From IMG/VR virus record IMGVR_UViG_3300023171_000008, positions 38,558-102,557 of that record: 64,000 nucleotides of DNA; one strand, given 5' to 3'. Below the pieces are notes generated by a model. The model was not told the origin of the DNA. It searched no databases and saw only the letters and a list, made by a program, of their open reading frames with translations. A program made the translations under genes and the position numbers. Source of the DNA: a virus. Positions within the stretch are counted from its first letter, which is position 1. Each line of letters begins with the position of its first letter. This document shows, piece by piece, positions 2,927-39,338 of this stretch.

Positions 2927-3385
2927 TTAACGTATTGCTGTGTAAAAATATGTGGCTAAACCTGCCAAAGGCAAACTTCTATAATTAACGGTAAATGTTG
3001 TAGCGTTTATATTACTTATCCATCTATCGCCTATTGCTCCTTGTTGTGATAATGCCTCTAATAATATTCCTGAAGGTATATAAGGTAATCCGTGAGAAAC
3101 AGTATAAGTTAAAGTTAGTAAAGCTACAGTAATACTAAAAGTTCCAGTTGAGTAATTATTATTTCTCATTCTTGTCCATCTACCTACGCTCATACCAGAT
3201 ACTTGAATGTAGTTAATTCCATCTGCTGTATTGACAGCCGTAGAAGACCATCTATAATTTCCTCCACCTCTATCGTCTGGATTTACACCATACGCAACAT
3301 AGACTACCACTCCTTCTGTACCTGCTTGTAAAGCTAAATCTGCAAGGCTATCAAAAGCCTGTCCTGTCATTGTAATATAAGCCAT
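2927..3385 (-). CDS. Small tail fibre/tailspike-related protein
   Basis: Tailspike-N-like segment (DRGGGNYRW...ADG...GRWTR) plus C-terminal HGL.YIP domain resembling the end of 3389..7132. Confidence 0.6.
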   Translation of the reverse strand: MAYITMTGQAFDSLADLALQAGTEGVVVYVAYGVNPDDRGGGNYRWSSTAVNTADGINYIQVSGMSVGRWTRMRNNNYSTGTFSITVALLTLTYTVSHGLPYIPSGILLEALSQQGAIGDRWISNINATTFTVNYRSLPLAGLATYFYTAIR

Positions 3386-33922: not shown

Positions 33923-34243
33923 ATGAAAAAACTTATTTTATGTATAATGATATTATTATCATATACAATTAATGCACAACTAATAAATGAACCATCTATA
34001 GATCCAGGTAATAATAATTTACCTAATACTACTAATACTATCACAGTTAATATAACATCAGGTATAGTAAAAGTAAGAATTAAATGTGAAGAATGTTCTG
34101 GATTTGATTGTGTATCATATGGTAAAGGTAGTGATAATAAACTCTATAAAATAGAGAAATGGTCTACTATAGATTTAGAAACTAAGAAATTAGTTAAATA
34201 TACTAAAGTAACAGTTGTTACATCATATCCTGTAGGATGTTAA
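33923..34243 (+). CDS. Secreted protein with signal peptide
   Basis: MKKLILCIMILLSYTINAQ Bacteroidota-type signal peptide. Confidence 0.6.
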   Translation: MKKLILCIMILLSYTINAQLINEPSIDPGNNNLPNTTNTITVNITSGIVKVRIKCEECSGFDCVSYGKGSDNKLYKIEKWSTIDLETKKLVKYTKVTVVTSYPVGC

Positions 34244-34249
34244 AATAAT

Positions 34250-34354
34250 AAAGTCTTGTCCAATTGTAGGAGAACAGGTATAGTTCACTTAATCCATATA
34301 GCTTTATACGATACCTTAGCACTGGATATTCAAGGCACAACCTTGCAAGACTTT
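34250..34354 (+). ncRNA. Candidate structured RNA A (105 nt)
   Basis: Closing stem AAAGTCTTG/CAAGACTTT; CAAGG/CCTTG hairpin; crossing AGGTAT/ATACCT and ATCCA/TGGAT. Confidence 0.55.
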
Positions 34355-34363
34355 TAATAATAT

Positions 34364-34564
34364 AAACCTTTCTAACTTGAAGATAAATAGTAATAATAAG
34401 TCAAGTAGATGGAATCCTGACTATGGTATGGTTCTGCCATTATTACAAGCTGATCCAACAGCTGTTATTTATTACTACAAGGTAGTTATACTAGTTAACT
34501 AATGTACTATCTGGATGAAAGTCAGATTATAACTATTCCTTTGGAAATGGGATTAGAAAGGTTT
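34364..34564 (+). ncRNA. Candidate structured RNA B (201 nt)
   Basis: 12-bp closing stem AAACCTTTCTAA/TTAGAAAGGTTT; several internal helices. Confidence 0.6.
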
Positions 34565-34573
34565 TAATAATAA

Positions 34574-34631
34574 ATTGTGTACAAATCTAATATTAATCAT
34601 TAGATAGTTATGGGGGTAACAAGTACACAAT
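34574..34631 (+). ncRNA. Candidate structured RNA C (58 nt, three-way junction)
   Basis: Closing stem ATTGTGTAC/GTACACAAT; hairpins ATCTAAT/ATTAGAT and GTTAT/GTAAC. Confidence 0.55.
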
Positions 34632-34886
34632 AATATGTAATTTGATAAATAATTAATAACATTTAAATAACATGATCAGAGGTTCTCCTATTGTGATGTA
34701 AAATAGTCACCTTAAACAAAAATATAAGTGAATAATAGTAGCTTGTACCATATAAATAAAAAAATATAATAAAATAACGAAATTAAATAACTTAACTAAA
34801 ACAATATCATTATGAAGAAAATGTAATAATATTAATTGTGAAATTCAAACTAGATTTATCTAACTGTTATAGTCAGTATTTTAAAT

Positions 34887-34972
34887 GCAGCTATGGTGTA
34901 ACTGGTAGCCACGCAAGACTTAAAATTTTGTGAACAGTAATGTTCGTAAGGGTTCGACTCCCTTTAGCTGTA
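34887..34972 (+). tRNA. trnL: tRNA-Leu(UAA)
   Basis: Acceptor GCAGCTA/TAGCTGT, anticodon loop CTTAAAA, long variable arm GAACA..TGTTC, T-loop GGTTCGACTCC. Confidence 0.92.
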
Positions 34973-35000
34973 CAAATAACAATATAAACTAATAATAACT

Positions 35001-38614: not shown

Positions 38615-39184
38615 TGATTATATTTATATTAATCTGGTGTTTAATAGGTTTAGTATCATTATGGAGAGTATATCATGGATTTTTAAAAGATTGGTATATT
38701 AGATTTAATGAAAGTTATTGGTCATATGATGCTAAAACATTTAAATTATTATTTATAGCAAGTCCTGTATTTATAATGGGAGGACTTTTTACATTATTGT
38801 ATTGGGAAATTAATGTAAATACTACTAACTGGTATTTTACAACTAAAAATAAAATAACTAATGAATCTTAAACAAGCTTTAGTTGTGTTATTAGCTATAT
38901 TGTTAATGGGAGTAATTGCTACAGTATTATATAACTATTTTGTATGGTTTGTAGCTGCAGCAATATCCTCAACTATCAACTTAGTTATTATGTTTAAAGC
39001 AATTAATATAATGGTTGATTATGACGATTAATGCAATATTAACACAACCAATAAATAGACCAGAGTCTATACAGGAACGTAGAAATCATTTTCAACAATG
39101 GTTGTCTAATTTAAAGAACTATAATTACAAGCAAATACAACGAGAGTTAGATGCTTGTGATATTATTAAATAATTAATAGTGAC

Positions 39185-39257
39185 TATTGAGATGGAAAAA
39201 TGGGAAGAAAAGGGATTAATAACCTCAAGATTGTGAGTTCGATTCTCACTTCAATAG
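39185..39257 (+). tRNA. tRNA-like element / pseudo-tRNA
   Basis: 73 nt; acceptor TATTGAG/TTCAATA and T-arm GTGAG-TTCGATT-CTCAC intact; D-arm and anticodon stem degenerate. Confidence 0.5.
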
Positions 39258-39303
39258 CTAAACAAAGTTCATAATTTTTGTTTTATTAGTTAGTTATTAG
39301 TTG

Positions 39304-39338
39304 AACTGTCAGTGAATAAAGTAGCTGACAGTTTTTTT
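39304..39338 (+). terminator. Intrinsic terminator
   Basis: AACTGTCAG/CTGACAGTT stem plus T7. Confidence 0.8.

Follow-up and report, generated by a model that had tools for sequence, protein, structure and literature searches.

The window analysed here, a stretch of 64,000 nucleotides with a GC content of ~25%, makes up the right-hand 64 kb of a phage genome of 102.5 kb from IMG/VR. The source is a divergent crAss-like phage; its terminase large subunit shares 43% identity with crAss-like phage counterparts, and the capsid and portal proteins of the genome match phage head families. Downstream of a strand switch near 31–32 kb the genes run on the + strand, and between the end of a 106-aa ORF at 34243 and the start of a tRNA-Leu(UAA) at 34887 there is no credible ORF, those overlapping 34250–34631 being no longer than 41 aa. 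On its + strand this gap carries genes for two, probably three, distinct non-coding RNAs, here called A, B, and C, with the following features:

34250–34354, + strand: RNA A, a conserved phage RNA family with 31 aligned copies
34250–34258 with 34346–34354, + strand: helix P1 of A, compensatory changes in 9 of 9 pairs
34259–34270, + strand: conserved 5' strand of A, TCCAATTGTAGG
34264–34268, + strand: strand UUGUA of A, predicted to pair with the hairpin loop CACAA (34336–34340) over 4 bp in the window; putative pseudoknot or elbow-like contact
34271–34329, + strand: hypervariable body of A
34331–34335 with 34341–34345, + strand: 3' hairpin of A, abutting P1
34355–34363, + strand: AU-only spacer between A and B, part of TTTTAATAATA(TA); B of relatives is preceded by similar AU-rich spacers
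34364–34564, + strand: RNA B, a second conserved family with 30 aligned copies
34364–34375 with 34553–34564, + strand: helix P1 of B
34376–34381, + strand: junction CTTGAA of B
34382–34388 with 34467–34473, + strand: helix P2 of B
34390–34397 with 34439–34446, + strand: helix P3 of B, closing variable insert 1
34448–34452 with 34459–34463, + strand: helix P4 of B
34454–34458, + strand: loop L4 of B, UCCAA, predicted to pair with loop L6, UUGGA (34541–34545), in a loop–loop (kissing) contact
34483–34490 with 34528–34535, + strand: helix P5 of B, closing variable insert 2
34537–34540 with 34549–34552, + strand: helix P6 of B, abutting P1
34565–34573, + strand: AU-only spacer between B and C, TAATAATAA
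34574–34631, + strand: RNA C, candidate third unit, a small three-way junction
34574–34582 with 34623–34631, + strand: helix P1 of C
34585–34605 and 34607–34620, + strand: hairpins of C
34632–34886, + strand: AU-rich unstructured spacer of 255 nt before the tRNA (fold z +0.78)
34887–34973, + strand: tRNA-Leu(UAA), called by ARAGORN and by Rfam RF00005 (50.7 bits)

A preliminary description of this DNA had proposed three stem-closed units in tandem upstream of tRNA-Leu, and all three lie where it placed them, closed by stems of 9 bp (A, 34250–34354), 12 bp (B, 34364/34366–34564), and 9 bp (C, 34574–34631). The tRNA, which is the only one in the 102.5-kb genome, is indeed downstream on the array's own strand; A and B likewise occur once each in that genome. 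The junction sequence said to be shared is found exactly, TTTTAATAATA starting at 34352 and again at 34562, and these two junctions account for half of the four exact copies in the 64 kb. Every helix named in that description is also present in the sequence, with fates that differ as shown below.

Terminal stems of this kind are not unusual in themselves. Perfect inverted repeats of at least 9 bp with loops of 30–220 nt number 202 in the window against 195 ± 16 in shuffles, giving no enrichment. In single-sequence folding, C is far better than shuffled controls (z −4.25; minimum free energy −15 kcal/mol, 0 of 200 shuffles as good), whereas A (z −1.76) and B (z −1.05) are unremarkable, and the expectation that the units fold better than shuffles thus stands for C and is weak for A and B. 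As the terminal stems occur at chance frequency and the folding of A and B is ordinary, it is solely covariation in relatives that lifts A and B above chance.

Relatives of A were found mainly with search patterns. The A pattern was derived from two copies, that of the window and that of locus L008, a distant relative that has the same array, a neighbour protein of 484 aa with 49% identity, and A and B copies that nhmmer aligned to those of the window. It identified 26 viral contigs, some with 2–4 copies; a second pattern and loci retrieved for other purposes contributed further ones, bringing the family to at least 31. An exact 23-mer of A had no match among viral contigs. The common layout consists of P1, most often AAACUCUCA/UGAGAGUUU, a single strand UCCAAUUGCAGG, a hypervariable body of 45–75 nt, and a 5-bp hairpin, CAAGG-UGCAA-CCUUG, that continues directly into the 3' strand of P1. 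The elements that define the family (P1, UCCAAUUGNAGG, variable body, 5-bp hairpin with loop UNCAA, and the returning P1 strand) are all found in the window copy, which scores 73 bits (E 1.5e-12) against model R1, whose seed alignment includes it.

Across the 31 aligned copies of A, 95% of the P1 cells are paired, each of the nine pairs shows compensatory changes, with versions such as UGUUCCCG/CGGGAACA and AAAUCCCUA/UAGGGAUUU, and none of 500 shuffles was as good. The hairpin loop is in addition complementary to UUGCA of the 5' strand (UUGNA with UNCAA), the central pair being C–G in 25 copies, U–A in two (the window and L064), A–U in one (L159), and U·G in one. The invariance of the A core is largely imposed by the search patterns. 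A pattern in which the pseudoknot positions were left free gave few new variants, among them L154 with a broken register, and two copies, L064 and L025:1120, retain the long-range pairing without having the hairpin. Given the pattern-imposed core, the L154 register, and the two hairpin-less copies, we regard the predicted loop-to-strand contact as supported, short of proof. The pseudoknot initially proposed for A, AGGTAT/ATACCT crossing ATCCA/TGGAT, falls within the hypervariable part. With seven G·U against seven A·C, wobble pairs leave the strand of A undecided.

Some A loci have further features. Positions 560–2000 of L025 form a non-coding island of more than 1.4 kb with higher GC and three copies of A (782–892, 1120–1245, and 1490–1588). 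A segment of ~60 nt is repeated ahead of every copy, and further stem-closed units are interspersed among them. In L152, the Flavobacterium phage Fpv20, an unannotated ORF for a small membrane protein (MKLILLSITLF..., 1636–1832) starts ~12 nt past the RNA.

The evidence for B is richer. A seed motif common to the window and L008, CUUGAAGAUAAA, gave ~35 clear members by pattern and, with nhmmer, ~45 non-redundant ones, of which 30 were aligned. The order of elements is P1 (10 bp), CUUGAAG, P2 enclosing P3 and P4 with loop L4, UGUAGAG, P5, and P6 with loop L6. P2 is AUAAAC/GUUUAU with an invariant G·U, P3 closes variable insert 1 and P5 variable insert 2, and P6 abuts the 3' strand of P1; the GAA facing GUA may resemble a loop-E/S-turn motif. 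Compensatory changes are present in 21 of 35 pairs, a number that 0 of 500 shuffles equalled, one pair of P3 alone being A–U in 19 copies, G–C in 8, and G·U in 2. RNAalifold independently recovered P1 and P4, the minimum free energy fold of a minimal member of 134 nt reproduces the whole model, and in most members a P5 stem extends as far as P6. The two loops are complementary in every member and occur in eight versions (CUAG/CUAG, UCCAA/UUGGA, UCCAG/CUGGA, UACAG/CUGUA, UUCAG/CUGAA, AUCAG/CUGAU, UAUCAG/CUGAUA, and UAUCA/UGAUA), the window having UCCAA/UUGGA with a 5-bp kissing pair. Complementarity averages 4.5 nt between the loops of one RNA and 2.6 nt between loops taken from different sequences. 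The excess of G·U over A·C pairs, 64 to 21, places B on the + strand.

The window copy shows what defines this family, namely P1, CUUGAAG, P2 enclosing P3 and P4, a UGUAGAG-like junction, P5, P6, and the L4–L6 complementarity; nhmmer finds it in its own genome with E 5e-18, the window copy being part of the seed, and all helices are present. Of the helices suggested beforehand for B, AGCTG/CAGCT is P4 and has the backing of covariation, and TAGTTATA/TATAACTA occupies the position of P5, where most relatives fold a closing stem. The pairing TAGTAATA/TATTACTA gives way to P2 and P3, which covariation supports. Overall, the closing helices of both A and B covary among relatives, and the comparative alignments show A and B to be conserved RNA folds with predicted tertiary contacts.

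The same data bear on a reading at the level of DNA, in which the units would be origin-proximal unwinding elements, recombination sites, or miniature inverted-repeat mobile elements, or would have arisen by chance, the last applying to C only. A GC-skew minimum, a likely origin, lies ~2.5 kb upstream, terminal inverted repeats are present, and inverted repeats of 9 bp are common by chance. Against this, the conserved cores are asymmetric, the loop–loop pairs covary and are non-palindromic, B has an invariant G·U, a one-strand excess of G·U, and a place in tRNA arrays, and the orientation always follows transcription. We consider such an explanation highly improbable, and for A and B it is disfavoured.

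C stands apart from the two families. It folds well and has the compact three-way-junction form attributed to it, but nhmmer found no relatives in ~160 loci. Between A and B in L008 and L027 there are units of the size of C with a similar small three-way-junction shape, that of L027 folding better than shuffles (z −2.4) and that of L008 not (z +0.3). C is a plausible third unit, a candidate only.

None of the three RNAs belongs to a class that we could recognise, as the preliminary description had held: A, B, and C have no match in Rfam 15 or in the tRNA and tmRNA models. Rfam searches at the gathering threshold and at E up to 10, run on the window and on consensus-like copies of A and B from other loci, returned only tRNA and tmRNA, and the tRNA, intron, and mitochondrial modes of ARAGORN gave nothing credible for A, B, or C in 34200–35000. 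An assignment of the stretch to AdoCbl was rejected as noise (best Rfam score 14.7 bits against a gathering threshold of 50, E 8.6, no B12 box), and so were RNase P RNA, 6S RNA, and the cobalamin riboswitch as identities for B, whose sequence has neither their conserved motifs nor matches to their models. An antisense or guide role was likewise dismissed, the variable parts of A, B, and C having complementarity of 10–13 nt to the phage genome and shuffles 12–13 nt. A scan for sigma-70 promoters gave sites no more numerous than in shuffles. The neighbour proteins have no Pfam or PADLOC match and hit only PHROGs of unknown function. In the papers searched neither family was found described; automated catalogues of viral structured RNAs also exist (PMC10690425).

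We conclude that A and B are two new RNA families. Stable phage RNAs that are tRNA-associated and tRNA-shaped already have precedents, among which are T4 RNAs C and D, tmRNA, YrlA, and GOLLD/ROOL.

At least nine distinct contigs carry A and B together, often with a phage tmRNA; the RNA islands of L006, L008, L017, L027, and the phage phi14:2 contain one. A lies unannotated in the Flavobacterium psychrophilum phages Fpv20 (at about 88311–88400 of NC_031912), FpV21, and FPSV; B lies beneath a "hypothetical protein" annotation in the Cellulophaga phages phi4:1 and phi17:2 and, in the crAss-like phi14:2 (L163, NC_021806), at 1285–1567 in the spacer between g002 and g003. Among 185,579 species genomes, the A pattern occurs in three MAG contigs only, one of which, at 104 kb, is as long as a crAss-like phage genome. 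B was absent by BLAST, a search of limited sensitivity, from 401 genomes sampled in the phylum of a Chitinophagales MAG. A and B are families of Bacteroidota phages, and neither looks like a host RNA.

In phi4:1 (NC_021788) the gene gp168, a "hypothetical protein" of 52 aa, overlies a complete B RNA (1424–1617 of locus L160, about 129598–129791 of NC_021788) and is probably a mis-annotation; a gene for an OmpA-domain membrane protein precedes B both there and in phi14:2. A conserved non-coding block with 79% identity over 107 nt is found in L018 (107 nt directly downstream of A, below 9853, − strand) and in L034 (9507–9612), following A directly in one contig and B in the other. In L034, the ~40 nt leading up to each of the two B copies (9337 and 9776) end in the manner of a tRNA 3' half (GGTTCGAATCC and then an acceptor strand); ARAGORN does not call these sequences, and they may be unusual or degenerate tRNAs.

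In 7 of 30 copies, B adjoins a tRNA at 1–13 nt on the same strand inside a tRNA array, and the spacers of such arrays in other phages measure 3–15 nt. In L113 the order is tRNA-Gln, 3 nt, B, 7 nt, tRNA-His, and in L087 it is tRNA-Glu, 10 nt, B, 13 nt, tRNA-Ala, within an array of 23 tRNAs in 6 kb. The array of L135 has, next to B, a sub-threshold match to YrlA (378–501; 35 bits, E 1.5e-4). Placed between tRNAs with such short spacers, B has no room for a promoter or terminator of its own, and so it must be co-transcribed with the tRNAs, from which cuts within the short AU-rich spacers would release it. The idea of a tRNA-style polycistron, originally raised for the array as a whole, is thereby upheld for B by the tRNA arrays of other phages; A lies within 500 nt of a tRNA in only 1 of 24 cases.

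A copies are always intergenic and co-oriented with the small ORFs that flank them, often starting 0–20 nt past a stop codon and ending 20–110 nt before the next start. A position just past a stop codon also fits a cis-acting role, and the RNAs, mainly A, could be intercistronic mRNA elements serving as 3'-end protectors, processing "punctuation", or terminators. In keeping with this, P1 of A is flanked by an A-run and a U-run in the manner of a terminator stem, and one genome may have several copies of A at different intergenic sites. B fits such a role badly: its position between tRNAs offers no mRNA that could be punctuated, and termination there would shut off the tRNAs downstream. Near-invariant junctions and tertiary contacts also exceed what a stabiliser needs, and a scan for intrinsic terminators flagged the inner P4 hairpin of B alone. 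We judge a cis-acting function unlikely, if the least unlikely of the rival readings weighed here.

RNA-seq of phi14:2 gives an indication of what becomes of such islands. Two long intergenic regions of its early arm are transcribed more strongly than most genes, and the non-coding RNAs of the early region, unlike early mRNAs, persist through infection, their function having been left open (10.1101/2020.03.07.982082). The g002–g003 spacer that holds B goes unmentioned in that study (10.1101/2020.03.07.982082). We find that one of the abundant regions (g005–g006; L163 4031–4500) contains a tmRNA, for which ARAGORN predicts the tag GSSVQKLAMVA and Rfam gives 46 bits against a gathering threshold of 47. 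The other (g004–g005) shares homology with non-coding DNA found after B or A in several loci. With abundant, persistent RNAs from regions of this identity, islands of such a kind do yield abundant stable RNAs. The second region belongs to a further conserved non-coding family of ~350 nt, usually situated just downstream of B or A and absent from the window; it comprises L163 at ~3018–3370, L143:5725–5866, L123:5334–5579, L101:1230–1486, L028:3490–3745, L018:8657–8838, and L016:12622–12822.

A and B have a similar anatomy. Each is a self-contained domain with a terminal helix P1, a 3' hairpin that abuts the 3' strand of P1, and a hypervariable remainder, and in each the loop of the 3' hairpin is complementary to an upstream element, UUGNA with UNCAA in A and L4 with L6 in B. 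In both, the terminal helix is continuous with the 3' hairpin, as the acceptor and T arm are stacked in the top half of a tRNA and in top-half mimics such as the tRNA-like domain of tmRNA, YrlA, and mascRNA. The corresponding loops have 5 nt in A (UGCAA) and 7–14 variable nt in B, neither with the T-loop consensus, and the likeness to tRNA is topological only, the tRNA models giving no match. Judging from this anatomy, the layout would copy that of a tRNA, with P1 as an acceptor-like helix, a T-arm-like hairpin, and a loop contact at the place of the elbow; the four helices of B would follow one another as in a cloverleaf, the hypervariable P5 standing where a tRNA has its anticodon arm.

The window has another tRNA-like "top half" at 39178–39258 on the + strand, where a 7-bp terminal helix, CUAUUGA/UCAAUAG, lies beside a true T-arm, GUGAG-UUCGAUU-CUCAC. 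Its body is not tRNA-like, and ARAGORN and Rfam do not call it; about 40 nt downstream a hairpin is followed by a T-run (about 39302–39337).

The reading that we favour, and think rather probable, is that A and B are stable RNAs from an early polycistronic transcript, as the adjacent tRNAs are, and act through their junction nucleotides on a factor related to tRNA or translation. From their context, A and B would be co-transcribed with their neighbours in an early "RNA island", which are a tRNA here and tRNAs and tmRNA in relatives. The nucleases that process the neighbouring tRNAs (RNase P, RNase Z, or similar) would also cut the short AU-rich spacers, and the products would be stable RNAs. 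In the last step, which is the weakest, A and B would act in trans, their invariant junction nucleotides binding some component, of host or phage, of the tRNA or translation apparatus, and the variable inserts would be peripheral.

Cores that are compact and highly conserved, that make pseudoknot or kissing contacts, and whose peripheral stems vary are also what one would expect of new self-cleaving or catalytic RNAs that process early or tRNA transcripts, by analogy with the HDV-like theta ribozymes and the clustered hammerhead and twister ribozymes. B can directly follow tRNAs, and different RNA families cluster together in these islands; ribozymes, too, cluster, and theta ribozymes flank phage tRNAs. 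The models for hammerhead, twister, twister-sister, pistol, hatchet, and HDV-like ribozymes in Rfam, at E up to 10, have no match in the stretch, however, and no catalytic motif is recognisable. We give catalysis only a slim chance.

A and B could instead be decoys against host defence, tRNA-shaped RNAs that soak up tRNA-targeting nucleases or other RNA-sensing immunity. The early region, the tRNA-like layout, the location in tRNA arrays, and the occurrence in phages only would suit this, and tRNA arrays of other phages counter tRNA-cleaving defences. Yet there is no mimic of an anticodon loop, the body that would bear one being hypervariable, and no link to a defence system was found; 34250–34631 contains no tandem repeats, whereas ToxI-type (type III) antitoxin RNAs have repeats of ~36 nt beside an endoribonuclease toxin gene. 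With neither such repeats, nor toxin- or defence-type genes in the neighbourhood, nor a ribozyme-model match, the roles as decoy, antitoxin mimic, or ribozyme that had been suggested at the outset find no backing, and we hold a decoy function to be as improbable as a catalytic one.

Returning to stable RNAs that act on a tRNA- or translation-related factor, a bolder and more doubtful version, which we put forward tentatively, is that A and B are new tRNA-shaped RNA classes with which Bacteroidota phages manipulate the host tRNA or translation machinery or tRNA-directed immunity. Under it, they might be ligands or decoys of a tRNA-binding enzyme or of the ribosome, or ribozymes that process the phage RNA island. 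If true, crAss-like phages would typically possess an early "RNA take-over island" made up of A, B, tmRNA, tRNAs, and other families that have yet to be named.

Among the viruses that infect gut and aquatic Bacteroidota, these phages rank with the most abundant, and non-coding DNA without an explanation abounds in their early regions. At least two RNA families, conserved and intricately folded, are encoded in part of it. Being outside Rfam, not found in the host genomes searched, and sited with tRNAs and tmRNA, A and B point to an RNA-based layer of host take-over. Their occurrence in cultured phage–host pairs, Fpv20 on Flavobacterium psychrophilum for A and phi4:1 and phi14:2 on Cellulophaga baltica for B, makes their role directly testable, and RNA-seq of phi14:2 is already public (GEO GSE133609). 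The fold of B, with its putative cloverleaf order and Watson–Crick elbow, is an attractive target for RNA structure determination.

Among known systems, the long non-coding early RNAs of phi14:2 come from the same kind of early island, in a phage that carries B; the RNAs highlighted there are neither A nor B but a tmRNA and a further family. GOLLD and ROOL, structured RNAs that occur in phages and prophages and await explanation, are often neighbours of tRNA genes and have loop–loop contacts (PMC12286853). Unlike A and B, they are 3 to 8 times longer, and they have Rfam models of their own, which gave no match here. The phi29-type pRNA resembles our families in a helix that closes the 5' and 3' ends and in two loops whose complementarity of 4–5 nt covaries between phages; separate pRNA molecules join through these loops into a ring on the packaging motor, whereas the phages with A and B package with a terminase. 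HDV-like theta ribozymes are small structured RNAs that directly flank phage tRNAs, but A and B have neither the nested double pseudoknot of HDV nor a match to its model. The tRNA gene cluster of T4 encodes the stable RNAs C and D (species 1 and 2), which are small, unexplained, and matured from a tRNA precursor. Like A and B they are small RNAs encoded among phage tRNA genes, but T4 infects Enterobacteria, whereas A and B occur in Bacteroidota phages alone and possess conserved cores of their own. In the tRNA-like domain of tmRNA (RF00023) and in YrlA (RF02553), an acceptor-like helix on a T-arm bears a body that is not tRNA, and both occur in the same phage RNA islands as A and B (YrlA as the sub-threshold match of L135). 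A and B differ from them in having no model match, T-loop sequence, tag reading frame, or Ro-binding stem, and their elbow would instead be a Watson–Crick loop contact.
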